A DNA stretch of 64,000 nucleotides from an uncultured delta proteobacterium (GTDB taxonomy: Bacteria > Desulfobacterota > Binatia > UBA9968), in the NCBI GenBank assembly GCA_963760795.1, contig CAVXEP010000029.1:128001-192000 (forward strand), given 5' to 3'. Numbering within the stretch: the first letter of the stretch is position 1; each line of letters begins with the position of its first letter. Shown here in pieces: positions 39,616 to 61,739 of this stretch. The translations under genes and the position numbers were made by a program. The notes beneath the pieces are model-generated. The model was not told where the DNA came from. It did no database searches and saw only the letters and a list, made by a program, of their open reading frames with translations.

Positions 39616-39629
39616 TATCAGTACCTCAT

Positions 39630-40247: not shown

Positions 40248-40290
40248 ATCTCACCTATGTATTAAAAAGTGTATTCGCATTAGATAAACC

Positions 40291-40305
40291 GCAAATATTA
40301 TGCCA
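40291..40305 (-). promoter_or_regulatory. sigma54 promoter
   Basis: TGGCATAATATTTGC (GG-N10-GC), upstream of 40247; palindrome pair at 40345/40376. Confidence 0.85.
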
Positions 40306-40769: not shown

Positions 40770-41090
40770 GCTCGAGGAGATTCGGCTCTCGATGTGGATC
40801 GAAGAGGAGGTGCAAAAGCGTTTCGGTTCGAAACGACAAGCTAAGGAAGAAATTCTCGCCCGCTACACCAGCTTAATCTATATGGGAAACGGCCAGTACG
40901 GGTTTGCCAGCGCAGCGCAATACTATTTTGGCCGGCCGCTGGCGAGGTTCACCGCCAATGACGCCGACCAGGCGGCGCTACTCGCCTGGCATCGCCAAGC
41001 GCCGCGTTACTACGCGCCCATCCCGATGGATACGCAGCGAGTGCTGCGCCGCCGAAATCAAACCCTACGACTGATGGCCGCCAGCCGTGC
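40770..41090 (+). pseudogene. fragment of PBP1-type transglycosylase domain
   Basis: KEEILARY..IYMGNGQYGFASAAQYYFG..AALLA GT51 motifs, then frameshift and truncation; boundaries approximate. Confidence 0.7.
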
Positions 41091-41449
41091 AATACGAACC
41101 GTCGCGGAAAGGAAAAATAACATTGGGAGCGAAAAGGTTGCTGGTCTCCGATCTATAGAGGCTGTGGAGTACTACGTGAACTTTTTGTCAAAGCACCGCA
41201 AGGGGCATTAACGTTTGCCGAAACCGAAGAGCGGTTTGTTGGCAAGTAGCGACAAGGGATTGTTTGCTTATAGGAATCATCTACGCGAGCTTGCGCATGG
41301 TCATGCGCCGATACCCGCGCCGGCGCAGTCGGTGTGCCGGCCACAACAGGCTTGAATGAAAACCGCAGTGGTACCAAGATCCCGACACTATTGAAATTTT
41401 TCGCTCGACTTAAAAAGTTGGTCTCAAAATTGCCTTCTCTGGACCCATT

Positions 41450-41884
41450 ATGACATTTTTAGAATCTACCCGATTTGATCAGACCGAACAGACCATAAAC
41501 CGGATCTTCCAGCCCGACCCGCTTACCCCGTACGATTATCTTAGGACCTCGCGGCGATCGGTGCACCTGGAACCGGAGAAACATTTGATGCATGCGATTC
41601 TGGAGGAAGCGATCAAGACATACCGCTTGCATGTTTCGACCAAATCCAAGCGCGAGCATAGGCTGTTTCTAGAAGCGGAACTCTGGATTATGGACCGTAA
41701 CGATGATTGGCTGTTTTCATTTGAAAATCTATGCGAGGTCTTGGGTTTAGATCCCGATTTCGTGCGCAGTGGCTTGGCTCGTTGGAAAGAACAGCAGGTC
41801 GGCCCTGCGGTGGTGCGGAAGACGCCACGTTACCGGGATCGAAGCGCGCGCCAGAGATCTGCGATAAAGCCTGCTTCCCCATAG
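41450..41884 (+). CDS. conserved hypothetical protein
   Basis: EPEKHLMHAILEEAI...EAELWI...FSFENLCEVLGLDPDFVRSGL pattern; recalled as common in deltaproteobacteria-like genomes. Confidence 0.7.
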   Translation: MTFLESTRFDQTEQTINRIFQPDPLTPYDYLRTSRRSVHLEPEKHLMHAILEEAIKTYRLHVSTKSKREHRLFLEAELWIMDRNDDWLFSFENLCEVLGLDPDFVRSGLARWKEQQVGPAVVRKTPRYRDRSARQRSAIKPASP

Positions 41885-41943
41885 GGCGTAGCTAAATAGC
41901 GGCTTGATTCAGCAATCGTCTTTTGATTATCTACATCTTGCAC

Positions 41944-41990
41944 GTCCCAAAATTGGGACAGCGGTAATTCAATCGTCCTGTAAATGAGAC
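41944..41990. promoter_or_regulatory. paired candidate enhancer (UAS) palindromes
   Basis: GTCCCAAAATTGGGAC (41944) and GTCCTGTAAATGAGAC (41975), 31 bp apart. Confidence 0.75.
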
Positions 41991-42031
41991 AGAGCGTTAG
42001 GTAAAGTCGTTATAAATTGCCGTCTCATTTT

Positions 42032-42046
42032 TGGCACGTGGATTGC
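42032..42046 (+). promoter_or_regulatory. sigma54 promoter of the NtrC-type regulator
   Basis: TGGCACGTGGATTGC, matches consensus. Confidence 0.9.
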
Positions 42047-42080
42047 CCCTAACGACCCTATAGTTACAGGAGAGAGGGTT

Positions 42081-43440
42081 ATGCAAGGTAATATTCTAGT
42101 TGCCGAAGATGAATTGTTGCCGAGAAAAAATATCTGCCGGGTTCTTGAAGACGAGGGATATCAGGTTCATGAAGCCGCCGACGGGAGCGCGGCTATAGAA
42201 GCAGTCGACAAAAATGATTTAGATTTAATTCTTCTGGATTTAAAGATGCCGGGCGCCGACGGCATGACGGTGCTCAAGCATGTGCGACAAGCATCGCCGC
42301 AGACTCTAGTGCTGATCATGACCGCTTACGCCTCCATCGAAACCTCGGTTGAGGCGCTTCGCCTAGGCGCGCAGGATTATATCCTTAAACCAATCGTGCT
42401 CGATGGCGTGGTGAAGAAAGTGCGCACTTTGATGGAGAATAAGCGGCTTGCTTGGGAAATCCAAACCCTGCGTCGACAACTCAACCGCGACTTCGAGACC
42501 ACCGAATTGATCGGAAATAGCCTCGCCACTGCGGAAATTCTCGAGGTGATCGAGAAAGTGGCGCCGACCAACTCGACCGTTTTGATTAGTGGCGAGAGCG
42601 GTGTCGGAAAAGAGGTGGTGGCTCGCACCATTCATAAGCAAAGCACGCGCAGCGACAAAACTTTTCTGGCGGTTAACTGCAGCGCGATCCCGGAAACCCT
42701 GCTGGAAAGCCAACTCTTTGGTCACGTTAAGGGTGCTTTTACCGGTGCCTCGAATTATCAGGAGGGCTTATTTCAGCGCGCCAACGGCGGAACTATTTTC
42801 TTGGATGAGATCGGCGAGATGCCGCTCATTTTGCAGCCGAAAATTTTGCGCGCCATTGAAGAAAGAGCGGTAACACCCATCGGCGCGGCCAAGCCGCTAC
42901 CAGTCGATGTGCGGATCATTGCCGCGACCAATCGGACGCTAAAGCAAGAAGTCGACGAAGGAAAGTTTCGCGGCGACCTATATTACCGCTTGAACGTCAT
43001 TCACCTTGATGTCCCGCCGCTGCGTGAGCGGCGTGAAGACATCCCGCTGCTGGTCGAACACTTCATCCGGCGCCAGAATAGCGAGCTCAAGAAAAACTAC
43101 CAGGGCGTGGAAAGCAGTGCGTTGAAAGGTCCTCATGTCGCTGCCATGGAAAGGAAACATTCGCGATCTTAATAACGTGCTCGAGCGCGCCATGATTCTC
43201 GGCAATGGAGACTGGATCACGGTCAAAGATCTGCCGCGCTGGGAAGTGCCCGAGGAAGATGCCGACCGCGCCGTCGGCCACGGCCATGATCTCAGGCGAA
43301 CGGTTCGCGCCTTTGAAAAAAGTCATATTGAAAATGTTCTGAAGGAAACCGACGGGGACCGGACCCAGACCGCTGAATTGCTCGGCCTGAGCCGCTCGTC
43401 TTTATATCGCAAACTCGAAGCATTAGGGATTGAATCTTAG
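42081..43440 (+). pseudogene. NtrC-family sigma54-dependent response regulator (REC-AAA+-Fis HTH), +1 frameshift at about 43126
   Basis: LDLKMP, GESGVGKE, GAFTGA, FLDEIGE and DLYYRLNV motifs; removing one base of AAAGG restores LKVLMSLPWKGNIRDL and the C-terminal HTH. Confidence 0.9.
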
Positions 43441-43689
43441 ATCTGAATAGCGGGAATTTTATTTATCCAGGTCGCGTGAGTTGTGCTAGAGACGGTCATC
43501 GCCAGGAAGACCCATTCGGTGACGAGTAAAAAACAACATCATTGCAGAGCTATCCACGGCACTAGTCAGTATGCCCGCTATTAGGATTTTATTAATAGAC
43601 ATGAAGCAGGAAGGATCGAAGACTATTTAAATCTACGATCCTTCAAGCGCCTCGCTTGGGCGGGTTTTTTACTACGCGCCCGACTTGTT

Positions 43690-43893
43690 TTACCTCTCTA
43701 CCTTATCCACCCAATCGGCGACGCGGCGTTCCGCCTCATCTTTGCTCAGGCCGTATCTTTCCTGGACCTTGCCGATCAATTGATCCCGTTTGCCGGCGAT
43801 CCGATCAAGCTCGTCATCGGTGAGTTCGCCCCAATTTTCCTTGATCTTACCCTTCATCTGTTTCCACTGCCCCGAAATCGTGTCCCAATTCAT
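43690..43893 (-). CDS. csbD: CsbD/YjbJ stress protein
   Basis: MNWDTISGQWKQMKGKIKENWGELTDDEL..GKRDQLIGKVQERYG; GGAGG RBS. Confidence 0.95.
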   Translation of the reverse strand: MNWDTISGQWKQMKGKIKENWGELTDDELDRIAGKRDQLIGKVQERYGLSKDEAERRVADWVDKVER

Positions 43894-43936
43894 AAACTAC
43901 CTCCACAAAGAAATTTGCTAACGAATCGCTATAAGA

Positions 43937-43951
43937 GCAAAAGATATGCCC
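43937..43951 (-). promoter_or_regulatory. sigma54 promoter of csbD
   Basis: GGGCATATCTTTTGC; palindrome pair at 43992/44023. Confidence 0.8.
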
Positions 43952-44047
43952 GCAGCCAATGTGACATGACCTATGGAGATGGACATCATTAATCGCAAGT
44001 TTAGGACAGGAGGAAATGCGATGTTTCTGCCTTGGGACAAATGCGCT

Positions 44048-44689
44048 CTATCGGAGCGAGCGGCGAAGAAGCACAAACGTAATGATCCCAGCGGCGCTTA
44101 ACCCGACCAGAAGCCCAATGTCCGTCCAATGACTATACTGTAACGCGGCCAATAGTTGGTCGCCAACCACGACAGTGGTCAGAGTGCCGGGTATGAGTCC
44201 TATGAAAGATCCGATGATGAAGGTGCTGAACCGGATGCCGAGCGCGCCCACGAACATGTTAACGACTGTAAATGGCGCCACTGGCAACATGCGTATCACT
44301 ACGACCGCGAAGATACCGCCACCTTTAAGTTTGGCGGCGATAGTTTCGAAGCGCTGGCGTTGCGTTCCTTGGCTGCGCGGTGGTCCATAGGTGGCGCCAA
44401 ACCAGAAAGCCATGGCTGCGGCGAGAATTAATCCCGTCAGACCGTAGACTGCCGTGCGCCACGGACCGAAAATACCAACGAAGGCCAAGGTTAGCATCGG
44501 TCGTGGAAATAAAATTAACGAGGCGGCTACATAGCTTGCAACAATGATCAAGGGAGCGGCAGGATGTCTTTCTAAAGGTTCACTCCAAAGCCGGAGCTGG
44601 TCTGCGTCCATTTTTTGTAGAGGGCTCCAGTGCCACAAGGCGATTAAGAAAAGTGCCGTCGCCAGAACTACAAAAATATTACGCGACAT
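44048..44689 (-). CDS. DedA/VTT (TVP38/TMEM64) membrane protein
   Basis: IFGPW, IRMLPVAPFTVVNMFVGALGIRF..FIIGSFIGLIPG. Confidence 0.88.
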   Translation of the reverse strand: MSRNIFVVLATALFLIALWHWSPLQKMDADQLRLWSEPLERHPAAPLIIVASYVAASLILFPRPMLTLAFVGIFGPWRTAVYGLTGLILAAAMAFWFGATYGPPRSQGTQRQRFETIAAKLKGGGIFAVVVIRMLPVAPFTVVNMFVGALGIRFSTFIIGSFIGLIPGTLTTVVVGDQLLAALQYSHWTDIGLLVGLSAAGIITFVLLRRSLR

Positions 44690-44778
44690 AAGGCGTACGC
44701 CACAGCCTTTAAATAATTGTCAGTAGGTACTACTCGATGCAGCGCCGCTTCTACTAAGGATCCGTTCTATAGAACGCA

Positions 44779-44822
44779 GGCGCCGTCCGTCTCTGGTTCG
44801 GGCCAAGAGACGAACGGCGCCT
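44779..44822. terminator. GC-rich stem-loop downstream of 44851-45846
   Basis: AGGCGCCGTCCGTCTC...GAGACGAACGGCGCCT. Confidence 0.55.
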
Positions 44823-44850
44823 ACGAAGTTTTCTGTGTAGCAACGATCGT

Positions 44851-45846
44851 TTACTTTAACCCGAGCGCGGTCGTCGTTTTTTCATCCAATTGTCCGGTCA
44901 CCGCGATATTTTTCGCCTTCTGAAAATTGCGCAATGCCTCCTGCGTGCGCGGACCAAAAACTCCATCCGGTTGGCCGGTCTGGTAGCCAAGGTCATTTAA
45001 CTTCGATTGCGCCTGACGCACTTCCTGCGTGCTAGCGGGCTGCGAGTCACGCATTCCTGCATCGTTGCGCGTATCGCTGCGTCTCGCGCTGCGCCCGCCC
45101 TGGTTCGCTTCCAAAGCCCGCTCTGTCGCTTCCGCTTGCCACATATTAGTCGTCACATCGATTTTGGTCGCCTTGCGGGTTGTCTTATCGAAATCGAGTT
45201 GCACTTCGTAACTGTGATCGGCTTTGACGATTTCCCACTCGGCATAATCGGGCTTATCGCTGTTAACCGACGTGATTTTCCACCCCATTTTTTCCAGCTC
45301 GCGACGGTAGACGTCCTTGTCTTGTCCCGGTTTTAACGCTTGCTCGAGCTGTTCTTTGCCTTTAGTCCAATCAGCTCTGCGGTCGCGGTCGCTAAACCGA
45401 GCATCGCCTCGACCCATGGCGGCTACCTTGGTTCCTTTCAGAGCTTTTTTAGTGGCATCCGCTTTCCACATGTTGGTGGTTACGTCGACTTTGCTAGCTT
45501 TATTGCCTTTATCAAAATCGATCTGCACTTCGTAGCTCTGATCGCCTTTTACAATTTCCCACTCGGCGTAATCGGATTTGTCGCTGTTCACGGCTGTGAT
45601 CAGCCAACCCGCTTTCTCGAGCTCCTTGCGATAAAAATCCTTGGATTCACCCAGCTTTAAATTTTGTTGCAACACTTGTTTCTGTTTGTTCCAGTCGGCG
45701 CTGCGGTCGCGGTCGCTATAACGTCCGGCTGGAGTGCTTGGCACACTGTCGCTGCGCTGAGCCCACGCGAGTTGTGGCGACAAAGCGAGAATTCCGGTTA
45801 ACACCGCGGACCCGCTCATCTTCAATTTCCTTACTGAGATTTTCAT
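44851..45846 (-). CDS. exported protein with two about 100-aa tandem domains and a C-terminal peptidoglycan-binding domain
   Basis: Signal peptide ending AWA; duplicated SDRDR..DYAEWEIVK..SYEVQxDFDK..DVTTNMW; AQSKLNDLGY..DGVFGPRTQEALRNFQ. Confidence 0.88.
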   Translation of the reverse strand: MKISVRKLKMSGSAVLTGILALSPQLAWAQRSDSVPSTPAGRYSDRDRSADWNKQKQVLQQNLKLGESKDFYRKELEKAGWLITAVNSDKSDYAEWEIVKGDQSYEVQIDFDKGNKASKVDVTTNMWKADATKKALKGTKVAAMGRGDARFSDRDRRADWTKGKEQLEQALKPGQDKDVYRRELEKMGWKITSVNSDKPDYAEWEIVKADHSYEVQLDFDKTTRKATKIDVTTNMWQAEATERALEANQGGRSARRSDTRNDAGMRDSQPASTQEVRQAQSKLNDLGYQTGQPDGVFGPRTQEALRNFQKAKNIAVTGQLDEKTTTALGLK

Positions 45847-45909
45847 TTCTTGCTCCTTTCGTTTTGCACTAAATTTTTACTTAGCACACTGTTTTTAAAT
45901 TCGATAAAA

Positions 45910-45924
45910 GCAACCGTCGTGCCA
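45910..45924 (-). promoter_or_regulatory. sigma54 promoter
   Basis: TGGCACGACGGTTGC, upstream of 45846. Confidence 0.9.
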
Positions 45925-46191
45925 GCTCTGGTGTGAATAGTCGCGAGGCTGCATGGATATCGAGCGACAAAGTGATTGTCCCGCGATGCAATTGCTTGTA
46001 GATGGTGGACTGAAAACCTGTGTTTGTATTGCAATGGTAGCGCGCAAACGGGACGGTGGTGGGTAAATCTCACCCTGTGGCAGTTTACCGTGCGTTATGC
46101 CCTAGGCTGGGGCGAAGCACAAATAAGGAACTTGCCTTACCCGTGCCTGCGCCCAACTTGGCCGTTCGTCCTTATCTAAATTTATGAGAGG

Positions 46192-46500
46192 TTACGGTTT
46201 GTTCGCTGTCCGGTTACCGCCCCACACAAAACCGATGCCGATGGCGGCAATATGATTGCCGCGGTTGGTGTTGTTGTCGATGTCTTTAAACGACTAAAGA
46301 AATATTCGTAGCGATAGCCGAGATTCAGAAAGGCCTGCTCGTCGAAGAACAATTTCAAGCCGGCGTTCGGGTCGATAACGCCGGTGATATCGCGATCGTT
46401 ATAGAACGCGCCGATGCTGCCACCCAGATAGGGTGCAGCTGCAATTGGCAACGGCATTAAGACTGCTCCCACGAGAAAGAGAGCGGCTAAAATAAATTTA
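46192..46500 (-). pseudogene. decayed outer-membrane beta-barrel gene
   Basis: Signal-like segment fused to PYLGGSIG..AGLKLFF..LNLGYRYEY; frameshift before GNHIAAIGIGFVWGG; start approximate. Confidence 0.55.
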
Positions 46501-47201
46501 CAGACCGCTAACAGAGGAGCAAAAATACCACCGCGGCATGGCGACAAATCGCAATTATAAAATAAATACTTTTCAACTACGAAGCCAATATTGTCCCGCA
46601 AACGGTGAAAAAGGTGAGACGATGTGTAGGCGTTAAGACAGAACCTGGAATCAGCGTGGCATGTTTCACGAACCCCAAAATATGCTTTTCACGTCCTGAA
46701 ATTGGCACAACAGATTTGATTATGTCTTATTATTGGAACAGAACATCTTTTTTAAGTGATCAAAACGTTTTTCAACTATGCGTGTTTTCGTGCATTTGTA
46801 ATTTTTCATTTCATGATTAACCCGTCGCACTGTCGATCAAACTTCTCGCTATGACAGTTAGAAGACTTCGTCGCAAGCGTAAGGTGCGGCAGCCTTTGAA
46901 TCGCAGGATGGGGCTTCACTGGCTCGGGGTTGGGCCCCGATGCCACCGTGGGGATTGAGGCGTCCCCCGCGATTTACCTCAGTGTGATCATGGTTAAGAA
47001 CTAATAGTTAAATAAATCAGACGGTGAGAGTTAGTCCCGTTTTTGCGACGGCGATCCCTACTTTGAGACGTCGTGCTGAATCTTTATTTCAAAGCGCGAT
47101 TCCAATAACGCGGCTCATTATATCAACCGAAATTCGTTAGCCAAATCTTCAAACGATGCGAATTGTTAATCTTTGTATTTGCAAGCGTTGTGAGTCTTTT
47201 A

Positions 47202-47216
47202 TGGCATGCTGTTTGC
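47202..47216 (+). promoter_or_regulatory. sigma54 promoter of the ferritin-like gene
   Basis: TGGCATGCTGTTTGC; palindromes at 47034 and 47054. Confidence 0.85.
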
Positions 47217-47261
47217 GGTAATTACGATCAAATTCAAGGACGAACATGCGGAGGATATAAC

Positions 47262-47876
47262 ATGGCGGACAGCTCATTTCTGACCGATGTCAAAACTTTA
47301 CGTGAACGGGCGCGTCGACACATCGAACGGGGCGCTGTGACGGAGGGTTACCAAGCCGACCGAGAGGTGGTTTTGAAACTCTTGAATGAAGCGCTAGCTA
47401 CCGAGCTTGTTTGCGTCTTGCGCTACCGGCGCCACTATTTCATGGCTAACGGTATCCACGCTGGAGCCGTGGCCGACGAATTTATGCAGCACGCCAACGA
47501 AGAGCAGGCTCATGCCGATCAAATTGCCGCTCGTATCGTGCAATTAGGCGGCGCACCCAATCTCTCCCCAGAAGGTATGTTAGCGCGAAGCCACTCCGAA
47601 TATGTTGAGGGTGATTCGCTGACTGATATGATTCGCGAGGACCTGGTTGCTGAACGCGTTGCCATCGATAGCTATAAGGAGATGATTCAGTATCTCGGCA
47701 GTAAAGATCCTACTACACGCCGGATGATCGACGGGATTCTAGCAGTCGAGGAAGAACACGCAGAAGATCTGGCGACACTTTTGGAACGGTATGATCAGCC
47801 GGCCTACGCGGGTTCTGTGTCACTGCAAAAAATGAACGATGACGCCCTTGCGATGCATAAGGAAAAGCAGGATTAA
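47262..47876 (+). CDS. ferritin-like (bacterioferritin/Dps-like) protein
   Basis: ALATELVCVLRY, EEQAHAD, DLVAER and EEEHAEDL di-iron ligands; GGAGGA RBS before ATG 47262. Confidence 0.92.
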   Translation: MADSSFLTDVKTLRERARRHIERGAVTEGYQADREVVLKLLNEALATELVCVLRYRRHYFMANGIHAGAVADEFMQHANEEQAHADQIAARIVQLGGAPNLSPEGMLARSHSEYVEGDSLTDMIREDLVAERVAIDSYKEMIQYLGSKDPTTRRMIDGILAVEEEHAEDLATLLERYDQPAYAGSVSLQKMNDDALAMHKEKQD

Positions 47877-47955
47877 AGCGGTCTCGCCGCAATGATTTGC
47901 GAAATCAGGCGATTCGATAGCGCTGGCAGTTACTTCCCGCTAGCGTTATTCCCCC

Positions 47956-47993
47956 GAGACAGATGAGCGGCGATTGCGCTGCTCATCTGTCTC
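47956..47993. repeat. 17-bp stem-loop between the ferritin-like and BON genes
   Basis: GAGACAGATGAGCGGCG-ATTG-CGCTGCTCATCTGTCTC (one G-U pair); no U-tract. Confidence 0.7.
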
Positions 47994-48070
47994 CCTCCCT
48001 CTACTGATAAACATTTTAGGTAGCGACCTGCATCATAACAATAGCAAATTTATCGATGAGGTTTTATTAT

Positions 48071-48448
48071 ATGACGAACGAGATTAAGATCATTACGTTA
48101 GGATTGGCTCTCGGGATAGGATTTATCGGTTGCTCGCGTGAAAGTGACAATCAGGCTCGCGAAACCACAACGACGCGCGACAGCACTACAACCACGACAG
48201 TACCGGCAACCCCTAACCCGACGCTGAGCAGTTCGGATCTAGAAAATGTCGTAAAAGCGAAACTTCAAAGCGACGATCAACTGCGTGTGGCGAATATTAA
48301 CGTTAATGCCGACGCCGACAAGAAAGAAATCACTCTGTCCGGCACAGTGACATCGCAAGAACAGCGTAAACGCGTCCTTGATTTGGCTAAAGAAGCGCAC
48401 GCAGGGTTAACCATTAACGACAAGATCGATGTCAAGCCCATGTCGTAA
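48071..48448 (+). CDS. BON-domain (OsmY-like) lipoprotein
   Basis: Lipobox FIGC, Thr-rich linker, VKAKL..INVNA..ITLSGTV. Confidence 0.85.
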   Translation: MTNEIKIITLGLALGIGFIGCSRESDNQARETTTTRDSTTTTTVPATPNPTLSSSDLENVVKAKLQSDDQLRVANINVNADADKKEITLSGTVTSQEQRKRVLDLAKEAHAGLTINDKIDVKPMS

Positions 48449-48541
48449 ATTGGTCGCGTTACTTGAGGTGGCGCAGATGCGCCGCTTCAGACGAAAAACA
48501 CAAAGGATCGTCAAAATCATGAATACTTAAACTGGAGGTTT

Positions 48542-49072
48542 ATGCACATGCCGAACGCAATTCAAATGGTTAAACAGGACCACAAGAAGGTTGCAAACCT
48601 GTTCGACAAATACAAACACACTAAGAAAGAAGAAGCCAAACGGCGGATTGCCGAACAAGCCATGGAACAGTTGGAGGTTCATGCCTTGGTGGAAGAGGAC
48701 ATCTTTTATCCTGCGGTCAAAAAAGCACTAGGAGACGGAGCGTTAATTCACGATGCGCTTAAAGAACATCAGGTGATCAAAGAGTTGATCGAAGAACTCA
48801 AGATTATCGAGGATTACGATGAGGATTTCGAAGAGAAATGGTCTGAACTCGTAGAAAACGTTCAAAATCATGTCAACGAAGAGGAGAGCGACCTCTTGCT
48901 GCAGGCTGAAGAAAGCGAACTTGATCTTGTTAACTGCGGCGCACTGATGACAGAGCGCAAAGAAAAGGCGATCGAGGAAATTGGCGCCAGCTCAATGGCC
49001 CATACTGGAAAATTACGTCCCGGCTCGAGATCGAAAAACTCGACAAAACACTCAGAAAGCCGGCACGCATAG
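48542..49072 (+). CDS. hemerythrin/HHE cation-binding protein
   Basis: QDH, EVHALVEEDIFYP, EH and HVNEEE motifs. Confidence 0.9.
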   Translation: MHMPNAIQMVKQDHKKVANLFDKYKHTKKEEAKRRIAEQAMEQLEVHALVEEDIFYPAVKKALGDGALIHDALKEHQVIKELIEELKIIEDYDEDFEEKWSELVENVQNHVNEEESDLLLQAEESELDLVNCGALMTERKEKAIEEIGASSMAHTGKLRPGSRSKNSTKHSESRHA

Positions 49073-49252
49073 TTCAGTCCGATCCCCAATCCCACGGGTG
49101 TTCGCCAGCGCGCAGATCATACTTCGCAGTCACGCGGCAGAACGCGCGCTGGCGGCCTGTCGTCAAAAACATAAAATCCTAGTGAAAAAGAAAAGCTCGG
49201 AACTGCGCGGCGATACTCACGGTCGCCGCGCATTCCGAAACCAGGAAGGTCG

Positions 49253-49405
49253 TTACACTCGGCCCATTAGAGCCAGAACGATGATGATTATAAGGACTAA
49301 TCCAAGGCCACCGCTGGGATAGTAGCCCCAGCCGCTGCTGTAAGGCCAACTGGGCAAAGCTCCTACTAATAGAAGAATTAAGACAATTATTAATACGGTT
49401 CCCAT
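49253..49405 (-). CDS. DUF3309-family small membrane protein (50 aa, below ORF-track cutoff)
   Basis: MGTVLIIVLILLLVGALPSWPYSSGWGYYPSGGLGLVLIIIIVLALMGRV. Confidence 0.9.
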   Translation of the reverse strand: MGTVLIIVLILLLVGALPSWPYSSGWGYYPSGGLGLVLIIIIVLALMGRV

Positions 49406-49433
49406 AGCGTTATCCTTTCCATTGTCGTGTAGG

Positions 49434-49568
49434 TTACTTTAGCGCTAACGATTTTCCCACGAGTATCAGGGCGACGCCGCCGATCATCCCGGCGCCGGCA
49501 AGCAGCGGTGGAATCGCAATGGATTCGCATTTCTCCTCTGTGCTTGATCTTGTTGTTCTGCATCCATG
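49434..49568 (-). pseudogene. remnant of a small membrane stress protein (DUF3185-like C-terminus)
   Basis: Strong AGGAGGT RBS and ATG, but out of frame with SIAIPPLLAGAGMIGGVALILVG. Confidence 0.5.
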
Positions 49569-49606
49569 AAAACCACCTCCTTTCGATTTCTCGAACTGGC
49601 GATGGA

Positions 49607-49621
49607 GCAACACACATGCCA
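49607..49621 (-). promoter_or_regulatory. sigma54 promoter (leftward member of a divergent pair)
   Basis: TGGCATGTGTGTTGC. Confidence 0.85.
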
Positions 49622-49772
49622 GTGCGATAGCGGAATTCACGACGCCCCATAGTTATTCACAGGGGGATATAGCGCATTGATGTCCCAAAACCGCGAAGGA
49701 GAGAAAGAAGCATTCCAAGCTTTGGGACACGGCGGGTTGTGTTCACACACTGTATGAAGGTGAATTATTATC

Positions 49773-49787
49773 TGGCATATGAGTTGC
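49773..49787 (+). promoter_or_regulatory. sigma54 promoter (rightward member of a divergent pair)
   Basis: TGGCATATGAGTTGC; shared palindromes at 49682/49713. Confidence 0.85.
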
Positions 49788-49848
49788 GTTGAGTCGCGGT
49801 GAATAGTTAAAAGACATCGACAAAAATATTGGAGTCGCTGGAGGTTCT

Positions 49849-50187
49849 TATGGATTATGCAGAAGGTGTTGCTCAAGGCAGAATGGGTCGTAGGGAAGAT
49901 GAGCGGGACGACATCGGCCGCAAAGTAAGCAATGCGGCTTCTGAAGTGCGCGCCGGGATCACTAATTTCGTCGACGGCAGTTAAGCAAAAAATACCAAGC
50001 TGATGCGGTTCGCAAGATGAGTGATACCGCGTGCGAAGTCACCGATCAGGTCAGGGGATACATCGAGGATCGCGGAATCCGGGGATTGACGGATGATGTT
50101 ACCGATTTGATTCGCCGCTATCCGATGCCTGCTTTGTTATGTGGAGTCCTGATCGGTGTGTTATTGGCGCGTCCACGGGGAGATTAA
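49849..50187 (+). pseudogene. YqjD/ElaB (DUF883)-like tail-anchored protein, frameshifted
   Basis: GGAGG-ATG at 49849; C-terminal LIRRYPMPALLCGVLIGVLLAR is reached only via frameshifts near 49976-49995. Confidence 0.7.
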
Positions 50188-53370: not shown

Positions 53371-53658
53371 ATGACTACAACGGATCTTGATAAAGCGCTG
53401 GTCGATGCGCGGGCCGTGTTTAAGCGGCCCGAAGATGTTGTCACGGCAAGCGATCTCACGCGGGAGCAAAAGATCGAAATTTTGCGCCGATGGGAATACG
53501 ATGCCAGAGAAATTCAGGTCGCCGAGGAAGAAGGAATGACCGCTCCGCCATCGGCGCCTCAGAGTGCGCCCTTGGATCTGATACTCAAAGCGCTACGTGC
53601 ATTGGGGGCGCCGTCGAGTGTTGAAAACTCTGCACCGACAAAACAGGGTGGTTCTTAA
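53371..53658 (+). CDS. conserved hypothetical protein
   Basis: VFKRPEDVV..LTREQKIEILRRWEYDA..AEEEGM. Confidence 0.75.
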   Translation: MTTTDLDKALVDARAVFKRPEDVVTASDLTREQKIEILRRWEYDAREIQVAEEEGMTAPPSAPQSAPLDLILKALRALGAPSSVENSAPTKQGGS

Positions 53659-54825: not shown

Positions 54826-57663
54826 ATGAAGCCCCAAACATCGATCAAGCTGCGCTGGCATCTAATAGTGCTGATAGTCGCCACATTGGTGCCGATGCTG
54901 ATTTTCGCAGCTATTCTGATGCAGCGTGAAATCAAACAGCAGCAGGAAAATGTCGACCGTGGCATGCGCCATACCGCCCGGGCGCTTTCCCTTGCCGTGG
55001 ACCGCGAAATCTCAAGCGCGCGGGCAGTGCTGGATACACTTGAAGGCTCGCAGTCTATCGACGAACGCAATTTTCCACGGTTTTATCGGTTGGCTGCGGC
55101 CGCCGCGGCGAAACGTCAAGGTTCGCGTGTCATTCTTTTCGCTCTCGATGGTCAACAGCTTGTCAACACCGCTAGACCTTTAGGCGATTCGCTGCCCAAT
55201 CCTTTTCAGGAAGGACAGCCGGAAGGGAAAAATCCCGTTTATCCCGATCTCCCTATCGGTGGAAATGCTCATCTGAAGCAAATTATCGAAACCGGCCAGC
55301 CCACACTTTCCGATGTGTTTATCACCTTAACCAACCGGCGACCCGAGATCTCGATTGGAGTGCCGGTCAAGCGCAACAACAAGATTCTTTACATTCTAGA
55401 TATAGTTTTCGAGTTGGGAACATTTACTAGATTGCTGCTGGAAGAAGGGATACCCGCAGGCTCGGAAGGAGTGATCATCGACCGCCAGGGAGTTATCGTC
55501 ACTCATACCAAGGCTCCGGAGCGGTTTATTGGCCGGCGCGCGGCGGCGCCGCTACTCGAGCAGATGGCCAAGTTGGATGAGGGAGTCGCGATCACGCAGA
55601 GTCCGACAGACGCATCGACCGCGCTCTATTTTGTTCGATCAAATTCAACCGGGTGGAGCACCGGTATCGGTGTTTCGCAAGCGGCGGCGCACGCGGCGCT
55701 CAATCGCACTTTTTATTTACTGATTGGCGGCGCGGCACTGTTGCTGTTGTTAAGTCTGGCGGCCGCGCTATTTCTAGGCAGACGGCTGACCAGCTCCCTC
55801 GCCCGGCTGGCTCATTCGGCGGAAGCGATTCAGCACGGTGAGCCGATCGCACTCAAACGCTCTACGGTTTATGAGATCGATGAATTACATCGCCAATTGG
55901 TTCAAGCCGGAACCCTGGCGCGACAAAGCTTTCAGGATCGCCGATTGCGCATTGAGGCCGAAGCGCAGCGGGCTGCGGCCGAGGCAGCGCGAAGTGAAAT
56001 CCTCGAACGTGAAGCAAAATTGCAAGAAAGCGAGGAACGCTTGCGTGCCTTTCTCGAAAACAGCGCGACGATTGCGTGGATGGTCGACGAAGAGGGGCGC
56101 TATGTTTATCTGAGCCGTAATTATCTGAAGCATTTCGATCTCGGTGCGCGACAATGGCAGGGCAAGACCGTCTTCGATTTGTGGCCGGCGGCGGTCGCCG
56201 AGAAGCTGCGTCAATCAGATTTGGCGGTGCTTGCCCATGGCGGACTGCAAGAGGAGATTGAGCAGACGAAAAATCCCGATGGCAGCCGCTCATGGTGGTT
56301 CAATTCCCGATTCGTGCTCACAGATCGTTCGGGCAAACGCTATGTTGGTAGTCTGGCGGTCGATATCACCGAGCGCAATCGGCTCCAAGAAGAACTCGAG
56401 CAGCGCGTCGCCGAGCTGAAAGAAGCCGACCGGCGCAAGGATGAATTTTTAGCGGTGCTATCGCATGAGTTAAGAAATCCGCTGGCACCGATTGCCAATG
56501 CCGTGCAGATTCTAAAAACGCTCGATGCCGCGGATCCGAAGCTGCGCTGGTGCCGCGACTTGATCGATCAGCAAATCAATTTGATGGCCCGCTTGATGGA
56601 AGATCTGCTCGACGTCAGCCGAATCACCCGAGGGCGATTACCGTTGCGTAAGCAGTTGGTGGAGCTGGGCCCGGTGGCTGAGGACGCGCTACAAATAAGC
56701 CGGCCGCTCATCGAAGCCCGTGGGCATAAGCTAACGGTCGATCTGCCGGCGGAAAGATTGATGCTTGACGGCGACCCGGCGCGGCTGACGCAAGTGTTTG
56801 CAAATTTATTGAACAACGCCGCCAAGTACATGGAAGGCAGCGGCGAGATTCGCTTTACAGCGAGGCTCGAGAGAGCCCTCACTCTCGTCCCCTTCGACGA
56901 GTTCAGGATAGGTTCTGCCGTCGCGGGCGAGAATGGGCGAACAGAAGCCGCGAGAGTAGAGACGGCGAGAAGCAACGAAGTCATCATTTCGGTCAAAGAC
57001 AACGGCATCGGCCTCGCGCCGGAACAACTGCCGCATATATTCGACATGTTTTTTCAGGTCGATACCGGCAGAGATCGCCACTACGATGGCTTGGGTATTG
57101 GACTGACTCTGGCGCGCAACTTGATCGAGCTGCATGGCGGCACGATTGAGGCGAGGAGCGAGGGGCTCGGAAAGGGCAGCGAGTTTATCATGCATTTGCC
57201 GGTGGCGAGGGTCGATGCCGTTTCAGCGGCAAGCGAGCGGGCGGCGCATCAACCACCGGCAGCATTGCCTGGCAAACGTATCGCCGTGGTGGACGACAAT
57301 AAGCTGCAGGCGCGATCCATGGCGATACTGCTCGAGGTGATGGGTTACCAGGTGAAGACCGCCCATGATGGCGAGAGCGCGATTCGCATGATCGCGGAGT
57401 TTGTCCCGCAAGTGGCACTCATCGACATCGGTTTGCCGGGATTAAACGGTTATGAACTGGCGCGTCGGTTGCTCGCGTTGCCGCAAGTAAACGGCATCAC
57501 GCTGATCGCGCAGACCGGTTGGGGACGGGATGAAGACCGGGAGTTATCGCGCCAAGCCGGTTTCCAGCATCATCTTCTCAAGCCGATCGATCGCCGGCTA
57601 CTGGAGGAGCTCCTGGGCGAGATTCTTGGTTCAACGTCGACTGAGTCGATTATCTCGCAGTAG
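54826..57663 (+). CDS. membrane hybrid sensor kinase (TM-Cache-like-TM-PAS-HisKA-HATPase-REC)
   Basis: Two TMs; KDEFLAVLSHELRNPL, NLLNNAAKY, DNGIG, GLGIGL, VDDN and DIGLPG motifs. Confidence 0.93.
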   Translation: MKPQTSIKLRWHLIVLIVATLVPMLIFAAILMQREIKQQQENVDRGMRHTARALSLAVDREISSARAVLDTLEGSQSIDERNFPRFYRLAAAAAAKRQGSRVILFALDGQQLVNTARPLGDSLPNPFQEGQPEGKNPVYPDLPIGGNAHLKQIIETGQPTLSDVFITLTNRRPEISIGVPVKRNNKILYILDIVFELGTFTRLLLEEGIPAGSEGVIIDRQGVIVTHTKAPERFIGRRAAAPLLEQMAKLDEGVAITQSPTDASTALYFVRSNSTGWSTGIGVSQAAAHAALNRTFYLLIGGAALLLLLSLAAALFLGRRLTSSLARLAHSAEAIQHGEPIALKRSTVYEIDELHRQLVQAGTLARQSFQDRRLRIEAEAQRAAAEAARSEILEREAKLQESEERLRAFLENSATIAWMVDEEGRYVYLSRNYLKHFDLGARQWQGKTVFDLWPAAVAEKLRQSDLAVLAHGGLQEEIEQTKNPDGSRSWWFNSRFVLTDRSGKRYVGSLAVDITERNRLQEELEQRVAELKEADRRKDEFLAVLSHELRNPLAPIANAVQILKTLDAADPKLRWCRDLIDQQINLMARLMEDLLDVSRITRGRLPLRKQLVELGPVAEDALQISRPLIEARGHKLTVDLPAERLMLDGDPARLTQVFANLLNNAAKYMEGSGEIRFTARLERALTLVPFDEFRIGSAVAGENGRTEAARVETARSNEVIISVKDNGIGLAPEQLPHIFDMFFQVDTGRDRHYDGLGIGLTLARNLIELHGGTIEARSEGLGKGSEFIMHLPVARVDAVSAASERAAHQPPAALPGKRIAVVDDNKLQARSMAILLEVMGYQVKTAHDGESAIRMIAEFVPQVALIDIGLPGLNGYELARRLLALPQVNGITLIAQTGWGRDEDRELSRQAGFQHHLLKPIDRRLLEELLGEILGSTSTESIISQ

Positions 57664-57733
57664 AGAACATGAAAGGCCAAGCGGCCAAAACGCTTTTTGG
57701 TGCCGCAAGCAAACGATACACTCGGAGTAACCG

Positions 57734-58795
57734 ATGACAATCCCAACTGAGCCGATCGGCAGCATCCCAAGACCTCTTAAGCTGATTGAGGCGATCGCCA
57801 CACGAGGAGTCAATGATCCGTCATTGGAGACGCTCTTTGAAGACGCGAGCCGCGACACCATCGAGCGCTTCGAGGCGACGGGATCGCCCGTCATCGCCGA
57901 CGGCGAGCAAAGAAAATATCACAACTTCTGGACGTACAGCGTGCAGGGATTGCCCAATGCGGCGGAGGACGGCTTTAAGATACCTTTCGTCGCCGGTCAC
58001 ACTCGCCGGATGCTGCGCTTGACCGATGGTCCTTTCCGCTACAAGACCTATGCGGACAGCTACCTGGATTTGGCGCTACGCCATGCCCATGTGCCAGTGA
58101 AGCAGGCGGTCATCTCGCCTTCCGCCCTCAGTCTTATGTATCCGCCCGACGAGATCCCTGGCTATCCGCGCGGGCAGTTCATCGACGACCTGCTCCGCGA
58201 GCACGAGACCGAGGTGCGCGCCTGCTTGCGCAAAGGCGCGCACAAAGTGCAGATCGACTTCACGGAAGGGCGGCTGGCGCTTAAGATCGACCCTTCCGGG
58301 CATCTCTTGCAGAGCTTTATCGATCTGAACAATCTGGCGCTGGCACGCTTCTCCGCCGCAGATCTTCAGCGCATCGGCGTGCACACATGTCCCGGTGGCG
58401 ACCGCGATTCGACCCACAGCGCGGATGTCGATTACGCCGAGCTGCTGCCGCAACTGTTCGAGTTGACGGCGGGCAACTTTTACATCGCGCTGGCCGGGGA
58501 AACGGACCATGTCCGGGTCCTGAAGATCATCCGCGACCACATGAAGGCGGACCAGCGAATTTTTGTTGGCGTTATCGCACCGATCGATGCGCGTGTCGAG
58601 ACAGCCGAACAGGTTCGGGATCGGGTCCTCGAGGCGGCCCAATACATTCCGCTCGAGCAATTGGGCACCACCGATGACTGCGGTTTTGCACCGTTCTGCG
58701 ATGACACTTCGACGACCCGCGACACGGCCTTTGCAAAGATCCGGGCGCGCGTAGAGGGCACGGCGCTTGCAGCGGAAATTCTCGGAGGTCATTAA
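57734..58795 (+). CDS. cobalamin-independent methionine synthase-like single-barrel (Meth_synt_2) protein
   Basis: IGSIPRP, DGEQ, VQIDF, GVHTC and DDCGF motifs. Confidence 0.85.
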   Translation: MTIPTEPIGSIPRPLKLIEAIATRGVNDPSLETLFEDASRDTIERFEATGSPVIADGEQRKYHNFWTYSVQGLPNAAEDGFKIPFVAGHTRRMLRLTDGPFRYKTYADSYLDLALRHAHVPVKQAVISPSALSLMYPPDEIPGYPRGQFIDDLLREHETEVRACLRKGAHKVQIDFTEGRLALKIDPSGHLLQSFIDLNNLALARFSAADLQRIGVHTCPGGDRDSTHSADVDYAELLPQLFELTAGNFYIALAGETDHVRVLKIIRDHMKADQRIFVGVIAPIDARVETAEQVRDRVLEAAQYIPLEQLGTTDDCGFAPFCDDTSTTRDTAFAKIRARVEGTALAAEILGGH

Positions 58796-60825
58796 TGGCG
58801 GCGACAGACCACGAGGATGCGCGGCTTCGTTCCGTTGCCCTGCAAAACGCCCGGAGCATCGTACTTGCGCGCCGGCGCGCAGAGGAAGTGTTGCGCAAGC
58901 AGTCAGAGTGGCTGCGCGTCACGCTTTCCAGCATTGGCGATGGGGTGATCAGCACCGACGCCGAAGGCCGTGTGAGCTTTATGAATGGCGTGGCCGAGGC
59001 CTTAACGGGTTGGACGCGCAATGAAGCGATGGGGCAAGCGCTTGATGCGGTGTTCCGCATTGTCAACGAGTCAACCCGCGAAGGCGTGGAAAATCCGGCT
59101 ATGCGGGTACTGCGCGAAGGCGCCATTGTCGGGCTGGCGAACCATACTCTCCTCATTGCCAAAGATGGCACGGAACGACCGATCGACGACAGTGCCGCGC
59201 CGATCTGCAATGAGAAGGGGAGCATCGCTGGATGTGTACTGGTCTTTCGCGATGTTACCGAGAGGCGCAGGGCGGAAGACGCCCTGCACCGTAGCGAACG
59301 CGAACTCAGCGAGTTCTTCGAAAACGCCAACGTCGGCCTGCACTGGGTCGGCCCAGACGGGATCATCTTGCGGGCGAACCAGGCCGAACTCGATTTGCTC
59401 GGTTACAGCCGCGAGGAATACGTCGGCCGCCATATCGCCGAGTTTCATGTCGATAAACCCGAGATCGACAAGATGCTCGACTGCTTACTGCGCGCTGAGA
59501 ACCTGCATGAATACCCGGCGCGAATGCGCTGTAAAGACGGATCGATCCGGGACGTGCTGGTAAACTCCAGCGGGTTTTTCGAGAACGGCGAATTCATTCA
59601 CAGCCGTTGCTTCACCCACGATATCACCGAGCGCAAACGGGCCGAACAAAAACTCACCGACGCCAACCGCCGCAAGGACGAATTTTTAGCGACGTTATCG
59701 CACGAGCTGAGAAACCCGCTGGCGCCGATTCGCAACGCCGTGCAAATCTTAAAGACCATCAGCCCCGCCACGCCGACGCTCGAGTGGTGCCGGGATTTGA
59801 TCGATAACCAGGTCGCCCAGATGGCGCGGCTGATGGAAGATCTGCTCGACCTCACCCTTATCTCGCGTAATTCGTTGGAGCTGCGCAAACAGCCGGCGGA
59901 TTTGGGCGCGGTGATCGAAGGTGCGATCGAAACCAGCCGGCCGCTGATCGAAGCGGGCCGGCACCAGCTCACGGTCAATCTGCCGGCGCAAAAAATGATG
60001 CTAGATGGCGATCCGGCCCGCCTTATTCAAGTGTTCGCCAATTTATTGAATAACGCGGCAAAGTACACGGAACCTGACGGCGAGATCCACGTAAACGCGG
60101 AGCTCGTCCGCCGAGCGGAGCAGGACGGTTTACAGGACGTGGTTGTCTCGATCAAAGATAGCGGTATCGGCATTGCGCCTGACCTGCTGCTGCATCTTTT
60201 CGAAATGTTTTTTCAGGCCGATCGCAGCAAAGAACGCCATTACGGCGGTTTGGGAATCGGCCTTACGCTGGCGCTTCATATCGTTAAGCTGCACGGCGGG
60301 GGTATTGAAGTTAACAGTGAAGGACTCGGCAAGGGCAGCGAATTTGCCGTGCGCTTGCCGTTAGCTAAAGAATCCGGCGAGCAGGACCAGGGCAGCGTCG
60401 GCGCCGGCAATGAGGCAAATCCGCGTGCGCGGCGTTTGTCCAGGTCGGTATTAGTTGTGGATGACAACAATAATCAGGTCGAGAGCATCGCCATGCTGCT
60501 GAAGATTCTTGATTGCGAAGTGCGCGCGGCTAATGACGGTGTAAGCGCCCTGGAAGCACTGAAAGAGTTCATTCCTGAATTTGCCCTGATCGATATTGGT
60601 TTGCCGGGTATAGATGGTTTTGAGCTGGCGCGGCGTATCCGCAAATTCGACGAATATAAAAATATCGTGCTTATCGCGCAAACCGGCTGGGGAAGGGAAG
60701 AGGATCGTATAGAATCGCGCCAAGCAGGTTTTGATTATCACCTGGTAAAACCACTGGATTTCCAGTTGCTCGAAAGGATATTGACGGGAGCGGAGCCGCC
60801 GACCTTGAGTCAAGCTCGGGTTTAA
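58795..60825 (+). CDS. cytoplasmic PAS-PAS hybrid histidine kinase
   Basis: SIGDGVISTD, VFRDVT, HDIT, SHELRNPL and C-terminal REC; TAATG overlap with the upstream gene. Confidence 0.93.
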   Translation: MAATDHEDARLRSVALQNARSIVLARRRAEEVLRKQSEWLRVTLSSIGDGVISTDAEGRVSFMNGVAEALTGWTRNEAMGQALDAVFRIVNESTREGVENPAMRVLREGAIVGLANHTLLIAKDGTERPIDDSAAPICNEKGSIAGCVLVFRDVTERRRAEDALHRSERELSEFFENANVGLHWVGPDGIILRANQAELDLLGYSREEYVGRHIAEFHVDKPEIDKMLDCLLRAENLHEYPARMRCKDGSIRDVLVNSSGFFENGEFIHSRCFTHDITERKRAEQKLTDANRRKDEFLATLSHELRNPLAPIRNAVQILKTISPATPTLEWCRDLIDNQVAQMARLMEDLLDLTLISRNSLELRKQPADLGAVIEGAIETSRPLIEAGRHQLTVNLPAQKMMLDGDPARLIQVFANLLNNAAKYTEPDGEIHVNAELVRRAEQDGLQDVVVSIKDSGIGIAPDLLLHLFEMFFQADRSKERHYGGLGIGLTLALHIVKLHGGGIEVNSEGLGKGSEFAVRLPLAKESGEQDQGSVGAGNEANPRARRLSRSVLVVDDNNNQVESIAMLLKILDCEVRAANDGVSALEALKEFIPEFALIDIGLPGIDGFELARRIRKFDEYKNIVLIAQTGWGREEDRIESRQAGFDYHLVKPLDFQLLERILTGAEPPTLSQARV

Positions 60826-60944
60826 GATCGCGATCCAATCGACAAAACTCGTTGGCAATTTGTACCAAAGATGCGCGACGCGAAACGAGCCGGTCGTGTC
60901 GCTAAATTGCCGAGCGGACCGACATCTGTTTTTAAAGAATCCAG

Positions 60945-61739
60945 TTAGGGGTTTGCGCCGGAGCTTTTTTCGCGCTGTGAAAGCGGACTCTGCGCGTGAC
61001 GATGACCCCGTTCATATCCGGCGCGAAACTCGCGCGCATCCCACATATCCGGAAAGTGCATTTTCAAATAATTCTCGGCTTCGATGTAACCCTTGCCTCG
61101 ATTGGGCAGGTCTAACGCAGCTTCGAAACCTTTGCGATAAGTCGACTCGATCTGCACGAAATTTTCGGACGAGTCGTAGGACTCCGCTTCCGCATCGCGC
61201 AGGCCGATCCACCATTTCTCCCGGGCGGCATCGATACTTTCCGCCCCGGCATCAATCAGAATTTTTCGCCCGATTTCGAGTTGATCCTCGTCGTCGGTGC
61301 GAAAGATCAGAATCGTTCGACCTTGGCGTAGCGCATCCTCGTAAAAGTACAGTTCATCGCGCGGCAGTCCTTCGGTTAAGGAATATTCCAGGGCGCCGCC
61401 TGCGGCGGCGCCTCCGGCCGCACCGACGGTGCCGGTGATTGCCGCAGTTATGAAACCGATCGCCAGCACCGGCCCGACCCCAGGGAATAGCAGCGAGGAT
61501 AGGACCATGCCAAGCGGCAAACCGCCCGATAAACCGAGTGCGCCGCCGACTACTCCACCGATGACCTTGCCCATTCCGGGCTGCTCGCCGTCAGTCGTAG
61601 GAACGGTGTTTTGCTCGCCATTTTTCTTATCTGGCGTTAGTAGACTTAATTGATCTTTGGACAGGCCTGACCTGAGAAGCTCGTTTAGGGCCTTTTCAGC
61701 AGCTCTGGGCGAGGAAAATATTCCGCTGGCGGTTTTCAT
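60945..61739 (-). CDS. general-stress-type membrane protein (YflT/Gsp17M-like N-terminus, glycine-zipper TM)
   Basis: GIFSS..AEKALNEL..G, PGVGPVLAIG and FYEDALRQG. Confidence 0.75.
   Translation of the reverse strand: MKTASGIFSSPRAAEKALNELLRSGLSKDQLSLLTPDKKNGEQNTVPTTDGEQPGMGKVIGGVVGGALGLSGGLPLGMVLSSLLFPGVGPVLAIGFITAAITGTVGAAGGAAAGGALEYSLTEGLPRDELYFYEDALRQGRTILIFRTDDEDQLEIGRKILIDAGAESIDAAREKWWIGLRDAEAESYDSSENFVQIESTYRKGFEAALDLPNRGKGYIEAENYLKMHFPDMWDAREFRAGYERGHRHAQSPLSQREKSSGANP

Follow-up and report, generated by a model that had tools for sequence, protein, structure and literature searches.

Among the single-barrel methionine synthases, MesA, MesB and MesC occur in anaerobic hosts and obtain their methyl group from corrinoid proteins, and MesD is accompanied by an adjacent or co-occurring MesX (DUF1852, PF08908). 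In bacterial signalling, H-NOX/HnoK and NosP/NahK are pairs in which a soluble sensor is encoded beside its partner kinase and is thought to control that kinase by contact; to our knowledge, most cytoplasmic PAS kinases have no known signal. Here we analyse a gene pair that brings these two protein types together, found in 64,000 nucleotides (nt) of DNA from an uncultured delta proteobacterium (Desulfobacterota, Binatia, UBA9968; assembly GCA_963760795.1, contig CAVXEP010000029.1, positions 128,001 to 192,000 of the forward strand), hereafter the window. Its first gene encodes a MetE-like protein and its second, overlapping the first, a soluble hybrid histidine kinase. The two genes recur together across many phyla, and we propose, with a probability of about 0.6, that the MetE-like protein is a stand-alone sensor or regulator of MetE origin, docking on a leader of the kinase, and that the two form a sensing module.

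Like H-NOX/HnoK and NosP/NahK, the pair would consist of a stand-alone sensor gene directly beside the gene of its partner kinase; it differs in that those sensors are heme proteins and this one a presumed zinc barrel, and in that the window kinase has a predicted, dedicated N-terminal docking helix. With MesA–MesD the protein shares a single MetE-type barrel of ~350 amino acids (aa) and, by alignment, HxC...C and a Ser/Glu/Asp triad, but it has Ala in place of the Glu/Asp zinc ligand and a histidine kinase as its constant neighbour; there is no corrinoid protein among its conserved neighbours, although no search was aimed at such proteins. Its best structural match (TM 0.78) is 3rpd, the single-barrel methionine synthase named MesD in PMC7857596. 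The best sequence matches are to YxjG/YxjH-type proteins (1YPX, NF005085/NF004875; 1ypx, E 4.5e-9), which have the same spacing (+33) from the Cys of HxC to the Glu position but read LEYDxER where the window protein reads IALAGE, and its scores lie far below the cut-offs of these families. It resembles the C-terminal catalytic barrel of Escherichia coli and Thermotoga maritima MetE in fold (TM 0.75) and differs in having neither the N-terminal folate barrel nor an equivalent of Glu665; where two-barrel MetE is recognised by PF08267 plus PF01717, this 353-aa protein gives a weak PF01717 match only.

A MetE-like gene coupled to a histidine kinase gene

An initial annotation of the window had placed the MetE-like gene between two hybrid kinase genes, with a TAATG overlap to the second, a kinase without a membrane anchor and with a short leader before its first PAS domain, and had noted no methionine-pathway gene nearby. 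These points are borne out: the coordinates of the open reading frames (ORFs) give both flanking kinases and the overlap (Table 1), no membrane-spanning region is evident in the downstream kinase, whose Pfam domains cover residues 41–661 and whose first 40 residues form a charged leader, and the ORFs of 51–64 kb showed no gene of the methionine pathway. A match to the upstream kinase was found only in the window and a same-genus relative (L044/L039), kinase-like upstream ORFs in a few other loci lying outside this comparison.

The pairing had also been said to occur in other genomes, and the neighbourhoods of homologs agree with this. At least 8000 scored homolog candidates were obtained (all E <1e-3), of which the best 120 are 80–99% identical, a very uniform family, and a scan of one genome per species yielded at least 598 pattern matches and at least 589 confirmed relatives. 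Linkage was analysed in the best 80 loci (L044–L123; 73–88% identical), whose record titles name Binatia, Pyrinomonadaceae, Thermoanaerobaculia, Holophagales, Terriglobales, Planctomycetota, Acidobacteriota, Verrucomicrobiota, Gemmatimonadota, Burkholderiales, Steroidobacterales, Polyangia and Eisenbacteria, among others. With at least 500 nt of downstream sequence available in 75 of them, a tblastn match to kinase residues 1–165 starts at or next to the MetE-like stop codon in 72, so that homologs of this close clade are indeed linked to kinases. The stop and start codons overlap, by 1 nt (34 loci) or 4 nt (24 loci), in 58 of 75 leader-bearing downstream ORFs (a set made without L050, L086, L092, L106 and L122); the remaining starts lie 0–5 nt after the stop (14 loci), 38 nt after it (one locus) or within a longer overlap of ambiguous start (two loci). 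Among the loci that gave misses in this tblastn count, L079 matches in the leader only, the downstream kinase of L083 has a visible leader, L050 has a PAS1 match and an apparently frameshifted leader region, L092 has a kinase core 186 nt downstream and no recognisable leader, and L106, with only 405 nt of flank, has a downstream ORF that is not a kinase and a kinase upstream instead.

When 966 ORFs from 85 loci were clustered, only the kinase (68 loci) and the MetE-like protein recurred widely; neither MesX nor any other conserved neighbour was found among these loci, and the module is therefore best described as a two-gene cassette in variable surroundings. The further suggestion of the initial annotation, that the pair feeds a stress regulon, is not supported, since no neighbour besides the kinase is conserved and the Dps-like ferritin and catalase genes of the window are local context only.

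Leader and MetE-like gene also occur together at the level of whole genomes. A hidden Markov model of the leader gave one strong match in the source genome (6.58 Mb; E 2.8e-14, next best 0.015), and among 41 related genomes strong matches (E <= 2.2e-19) were confined to G000, G002 and G003, each adjoining a close ortholog; these are the three of the 25 genomes of the genus that have one. Five genomes of other lineages each contain a single MetE-like gene, with the best leader match directly behind it in all five. Strong leader matches were thus restricted to genomes with the MetE-like gene, as the proposed pairing would have it. Unlike the window gene, YxjG-type genes lack this association: none of 31 control loci of other PF01717 paralogs had a leader, PAS1, kinase-core or REC match. 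One genome, G443, carries a second, weaker leader (E 5e-10; G443:C3:2410112-2410240, + strand) on an 848-aa ORF far from its MetE-like gene, and one MetE-like partner may there serve more than one kinase. A weak recurrent match (~24 bits, positions 6–41) was also noted in an unrelated ORF of ~105–150 aa in many genomes of the genus, at G000:C1:125531-125638 (− strand) in the source genome and with equivalents in most of the others.

The copies are old, because synonymous divergence (dS) from the window gene, ~1–2.7 for most cross-phylum pairs, is close to saturation (~0.4 for the same-genus pair). Nonsynonymous divergence (dN) is 0.07–0.17 and the ratio of the two roughly 0.05–0.17 (23 usable pairs, without the misaligned L069 pair); the MetE-like gene is under unusually strong purifying selection. 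Its distribution is patchy, with two occurrences in an even phylum sample of 401 genomes (E <= 1e-60).

Of 26 longer MetE-like proteins found, six were read. P0272 (654 aa, on a contig of 2358 nt) joins the MetE-like protein cleanly and in frame, through a short linker, to a leader and a HisKA_3 kinase, and may be either genuine or a product of misassembly. P0278 (61% identical) runs through a short garbled junction into a divergent leader-like kinase, and P0280 proved to have an N-terminal extension only. Outside these six, P0202 has a Crinkler domain attached, and P0156, a MetE-like fragment joined to a REC domain, is probably chimeric.

A full-text literature search, with supplementary files outside its scope, found no paper linking a MetE-like protein to a histidine kinase; the statistical co-distribution of phytochromes with methionine synthase described in the text of PMC1552090 is unrelated to this pairing. 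Within the literature searched, the pairing looks undescribed.

The partner kinases share an N-terminal leader

The downstream proteins vary in sequence and domain content. In a Pfam tally of 64 (without L081 of the cultured Singulisphaera sp. Ch08, 1280 aa, L095, 1661 aa, and all incomplete ORFs), HATPase_c was present in 62, HisKA in 55, HisKA_3 in seven and HWE_HK in one, accompanied by PAS (55), REC (45), GAF (19), MEKHLA (nine) and Hemerythrin (one), the partner being a histidine kinase in 62 of the 64 cases. Overall identity to the window kinase is mostly 30–50%. Common to them is a leader with the consensus DEExxLLRSVALQNAxSILLARQRAExEL, in which, over a 75-kinase alignment, R26 is invariant and E7, L11, A15, N18, A19, I22, R28, A29, E30 and L33 are at least 90% conserved (the leader alignment, A4, and alignment A5 were made without L050, L057, L086, L092, L106 and L122). 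The 35-residue leader alone gives a tblastn match in 68 of the 80 loci. What follows it differs: a PAS domain directly in some kinases, ~140 residues before a PAS match in others and, in four Gemmatimonadota loci, a coiled coil and then the kinase core without PAS. The early attention to the short leader was therefore well placed, as the leader, and not the PAS domains, is the conserved element of the kinase.

Fold and active site of the MetE-like protein

The PF01717 match is weak (24 bits against a cut-off of 21, residues 226–319), and none of the NCBIfam cut-offs for YxjG/YxjH-type proteins is reached (NF005085, the best, 58.8/313 bits; NF004875, 46.5/576; NF006589, 37.9/392). A confident AlphaFold2 model from a 54-sequence alignment (pLDDT 93.7, pTM 0.92) matched MetE-type barrels best in Foldseek, 1ypx (TM 0.71) following 3rpd and the T. 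maritima catalytic barrel, at identities of 15–22% (~18% to 3rpd).

The zinc ligands of E. coli MetE are H641, C643, E665 and C726, and its homocysteine-binding residues S433, E484 and D599, as given in PMC7857596. The window protein has the motifs GVH217-T-C219-PGGD, F249-YIALAGE256 and DDC316-GF, so that HxC and the last Cys are kept, as had been read from the sequence at the outset. The same reading had found the zinc-ligand Glu to be lacking in FYIALAGE, and rightly: the canonical Glu aligns to A252 both in a phmmer alignment to 1ypx and in a MAFFT alignment to 24 YxjG-type paralogs, and an alternative register, from alignment to 3rpd, puts it at A254, also Ala, so the canonical Glu is missing in either register. 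Thus, of the four-ligand His-Cys-Glu/Asp-Cys site of MetE and MesA–D, the window protein has H217, C219 and C316 and an Ala at the Glu position. Residue 252 is A in 72 and S in three of 75 kinase-linked orthologs. Relatives that lack a kinase have Q or E there, as in the ELAGE of P0280 and of a plasmid-borne Streptomyces globisporus copy, and by these alignments the kinase-linked clade has lost the canonical Glu as a derived trait. E256, close by, is invariant in the 75 kinase-linked orthologs and in six of six non-linked relatives. Also invariant in all 75, and nearly so across the paralogs by alignment, are S10, E58 and D175, which parallel MesA positions 8, 59 and 174 and E. coli S433, E484 and D599 (equivalence by alignment, positions as given in PMC7857596). 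Kinase-linked proteins have YHNFW in the loop after E58, where other relatives have PSFA and so one residue fewer, and the pocket region has the invariant acidic residues D223, D225, D233, D314, D315, D323 and D324. The residues kept imply that the protein would be capable of zinc-thiolate chemistry.

Predicted docking of the leader on the barrel

That the MetE fold docks on the leader had been put forward from the window alone. A complex predicted from a 75-row ortholog alignment and a 75-row leader alignment gave a median ipSAE of 0.69 (runs 0.69, 0.62, 0.74), above its controls (0.00, 0.28, 0.00), with partner pLDDT of at least 77 and at least 87% of the contacts common to the runs; the proposal thereby gains support as a predicted binding. 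The score mark is one reached by 58 of 80 solved complexes and two of 110 mismatched pairs, counts that are only rough with our own alignments, and passing it supports binding but does not show it. The predicted contacts involve leader residues 4, 7–8, 10–19, 21–26 and 29 and barrel residues 81–82, 133–138, 146–154, 181–186 and 190–204. In the model, the contacted barrel helices follow strands 122–127 and 171–175, the second of which carries D175, and the contacts of lowest predicted error include the near-invariant leader residues N18, I22 and R26.

Relatives without a kinase and the methionine pathway

No adjacent leader or kinase was found for relatives with 51–64% identity, which comprise G185 (only ~1.5 kb covered on each side), four loci from a second genus within the order, and four plasmid or chromid records (Trichlorobacter, two Streptomyces and Pseudoalteromonas). 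The other PF01717 paralogs of the source genome likewise have no adjacent kinase. With P0278, at 61%, followed by its divergent leader-like kinase, the boundary of the linked clade would lie near 60% identity. In three of the four loci of the second genus (L040–L042; G039, G038, G036), all from closely related genomes, the 58–61% relative, which has no kinase beside it, is followed directly by cobT (DBI_PRT) and a class I/II aminotransferase gene, and a cobalamin link of the ancestral enzyme is possible. The Trichlorobacter plasmid copy is near cobO, and the S. globisporus copy adjoins an AhpD-like gene. No consistent theme for an ancestral function emerged from the neighbourhoods of these unlinked relatives.

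The source genome contains a MetH-type gene. The match to its B12-activation domain (PF02965) is split into two neighbouring parts that lie in different frames (244 and 645 aa; G000:C13:100870-101683, − strand), which may reflect a frameshift or a split gene. Neither PF08267, of two-barrel MetE, nor PF08908 (MesX) was found in this genome, which is 89% complete; the PF08908 result is a weak negative, as the control genomes were also silent. At Rfam gathering thresholds, 53–62 kb of the window contains no riboswitch (neither S-adenosylmethionine (SAM) nor B12) or other family. Given no pathway neighbour and no riboswitch, nothing ties the window gene to methionine biosynthesis.

Single-barrel PF01717 paralogs are unusually many in this genome and genus, with 17 matches over the cut-off in the former and 4–17 protein matches per genome across the latter. 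In one YxjG-type paralog a single in-frame TGA replaces the zinc Cys codon of HxC (ALHL*RGN, AMHICRGN in the sister paralog), at the same place in three genomes (G000:C30:170016-171053, + strand, and L036 1480-2580; L014 in G022; L030 in G018), and matches with one TGA occur in further genomes of the genus and order. A tRNA-Sec is present in the source genome, and about 15 nt past the TGA a GC-rich hairpin begins, making this paralog a candidate for a selenocysteine zinc ligand. These three loci (L014, L030, L036) were omitted from alignment A3 for their in-frame TGA.

Genomic context of the pair

The features of the gene pair and its site are collected in Table 1. A promoter and terminator scan of 57400–61200 was uninformative, the number of sites being no higher than in shuffled sequence. 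Metatranscriptome contigs from four runs of four studies match parts of both genes, some almost exactly (one shows no difference over 161 nt, another a single difference over 212 nt), and one 250-nt contig of a relative spans the gene junction with 35 differences; as contigs from RNA libraries prove neither transcription nor a single transcript, they are not used as evidence.

Table 1. Positions of the MetE-like gene, its partner kinase and associated features, numbered from the first nucleotide of the window.
Feature	Position	Strand	Basis or remark
Upstream membrane dCache-PAS-HisKA-HATPase-REC hybrid kinase	54826..57663	+	Pfam; local context, outside the conserved module
MetE-fold single-barrel protein, kinase-linked ('K-type') clade, 353 aa	57734..58795	+	ORF, weak PF01717 match
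H217-T218-C219 codons, HxC zinc motif	58382..58390	+	H217 and C219 invariant in 75/75 orthologs
A252-L-A-G-E256 codons	58487..58501	+	Alignments; Ala at canonical Glu, invariant Glu 2–4 residues on
C316 codon, last zinc Cys, in DDCGF	58679..58681	+	Invariant in 75/75
TAATG stop/start overlap of both genes	58793..58797	+	TAA 58793–58795, ATG 58795–58797
Soluble hybrid histidine kinase, 676 aa	58795..60825	+	ORF and Pfam domains
Kinase N-terminal leader, aa 1–35, predicted docking helix	58795..58899	+	Conserved across 75 kinases
Kinase domains			Leader, PAS aa 41–159, PAS 186–279, HisKA 294–354, HATPase_c 405–524, REC 552–661

The kinase region is flanked by genes for a 95-aa protein (53371–53658, + strand) and a 263-aa protein with a Gly-rich hydrophobic middle (60945–61739, − strand), both without a Pfam match, and the local catalase gene starts at 63289. 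Farther upstream, GC content falls to 0.48–0.52 across 38000–50000, against 0.55–0.59 elsewhere, beginning at an integrase-core fragment (rve_3, 38294–38878). This segment, which may be an acquired island, encodes a REC and sigma-54 AAA protein without a recognised DNA-binding domain (42081–43172), a DedA/VTT protein, a peptidoglycan-binding protein and the Dps-like ferritin (47163–47876).

A proposed sensing module and its alternatives

In the mechanism that we favour, the (beta-alpha)8 barrel of MetE fold would keep a His-x-Cys...Cys zinc centre without the exchangeable Glu ligand (A252), together with S10, E58 and D175, the residues that in MetE hold the amino-acid end of homocysteine. Translational coupling would make the barrel together with its cytoplasmic kinase, whose amphipathic helix (approximately residues 10–30) would be bound by the outer barrel helices 129–135, 146–154, 178–185 and 190–204. 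The occupancy or chemical state of the zinc-thiolate pocket, set perhaps by a homocysteine-like amino-acid thiol or by oxidation or alkylation of the site, might shift these helices, change the hold on the leader and so switch autophosphorylation of the kinase; with the docking helices placed directly after the D175-bearing strand, a change in pocket occupancy could be passed on to leader binding in a simple way. Of this scheme, the coupling of the genes, their co-occurrence, the conserved leader and the fold are shown by the comparisons above; the docking interface is a model prediction; and we infer that zinc is bound, what the ligand is and which way regulation runs.

Several observations weigh against such a module. 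The linkage analysis covers only the best 80 of at least 589 relatives. The P0272 fusion is a singleton on a 2.4-kb contig, and three further fusion candidates (P0271, P0273, P0275) appear to have out-of-frame stretches between the two parts and are likely frameshift or gene-calling artefacts. The predicted interface is not confined to the kinase-linked clade: of its 12 positions that are conserved in both groups, 10 are identical in relatives without a kinase, and the barrel groove could have some other use. The leader, whose conserved face is heptad-like, could also form a coiled coil of the kinase homodimer. Amino-acid identity as high as that seen here would be more usual for an enzyme than for a sensor, and E256 may simply replace the missing Glu, which would leave an ordinary enzyme. 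A rival explanation takes up these last points: the protein would be a thiol methyltransferase of the ordinary kind, such as a core methionine synthase with an unknown methyl donor, merely co-transcribed with the kinase, its zinc site completed by E256 and the leader a coiled-coil cap that makes no contact with it. The retained HxC...C and Ser/Glu/Asp triad, the invariance of E256, the very strong purifying selection, the closeness of the fold to MesD (3rpd) and the varied contexts in which the 51–64% relatives stand alone, like free enzymes, all speak for it. It leaves unexplained, however, why kinases with different cores and sensor domains keep one leader and why strong leader matches lie solely beside the MetE-like gene, and it sits poorly with a genome that has MetH, in which MesX was not found (at 89% completeness and with a silent control), with the lack of a SAM or B12 riboswitch in the 53–62 kb scanned at Rfam gathering scores, and with a predicted complex that passes its controls. 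We consider this explanation unlikely.

The active-site conservation would also suit an enzyme that acts chemically on the kinase, by making or loading a PAS ligand or by modifying the leader covalently. Heme oxygenase supplies the ligand of bacteriophytochromes, and an enzyme-then-sensor gene order with tight coupling is what such a relationship would predict. Yet nine of the 64 partner kinases lack a PF00989 match, the four Gemmatimonadota kinases pass from leader and coiled coil straight into the core, PAS types vary between loci, the leader has no conserved Cys for alkylation by a zinc-thiolate enzyme, and the model seats it on the outer helices and not in the pocket, which together make chemical action very improbable. 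The least probable explanation, to our mind, is that the pair is a horizontally spreading cassette whose recent origin alone accounts for the conserved leader. The patchy distribution (three of 25 genus genomes, two of 401 in the phylum sample) and the 73–88% identity across phyla amid variable flanking genes would fit; near-saturated synonymous sites in most pairs, which mark the copies as old, and kinase bodies that have been reshuffled to 30–50% identity and different domain sets with the leader retained, do not.

A wider proposal can be made, to which we give somewhat less than even odds: that K-type proteins form a new sensor class, cytoplasmic and stand-alone, found in at least several hundred soil-bacterial species, in which an ancestral zinc thiol methyltransferase has lost its exchangeable Glu, the zinc-thiolate site left open signals the presence of an oxidant, a methylating electrophile or a homocysteine-like thiol, and the barrel clamps a portable 30-residue helix that any kinase core could carry. 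The MetE-like protein is a defined and widely distributed kinase partner with a recognisable ligand pocket and a short predicted docking helix. Metabolic reconstructions should probably leave genes of this kind, at present annotated as methionine synthases, out of methionine biosynthesis. Were the module confirmed, an enzyme fold not earlier linked to two-component signalling would be added to the sensor types known so far, kinases would have a defined, portable docking tag, and for hundreds of orphan kinases, spread over Acidobacteriota, Planctomycetota, Verrucomicrobiota, Gemmatimonadota and Burkholderiales, the signal would become directly testable.

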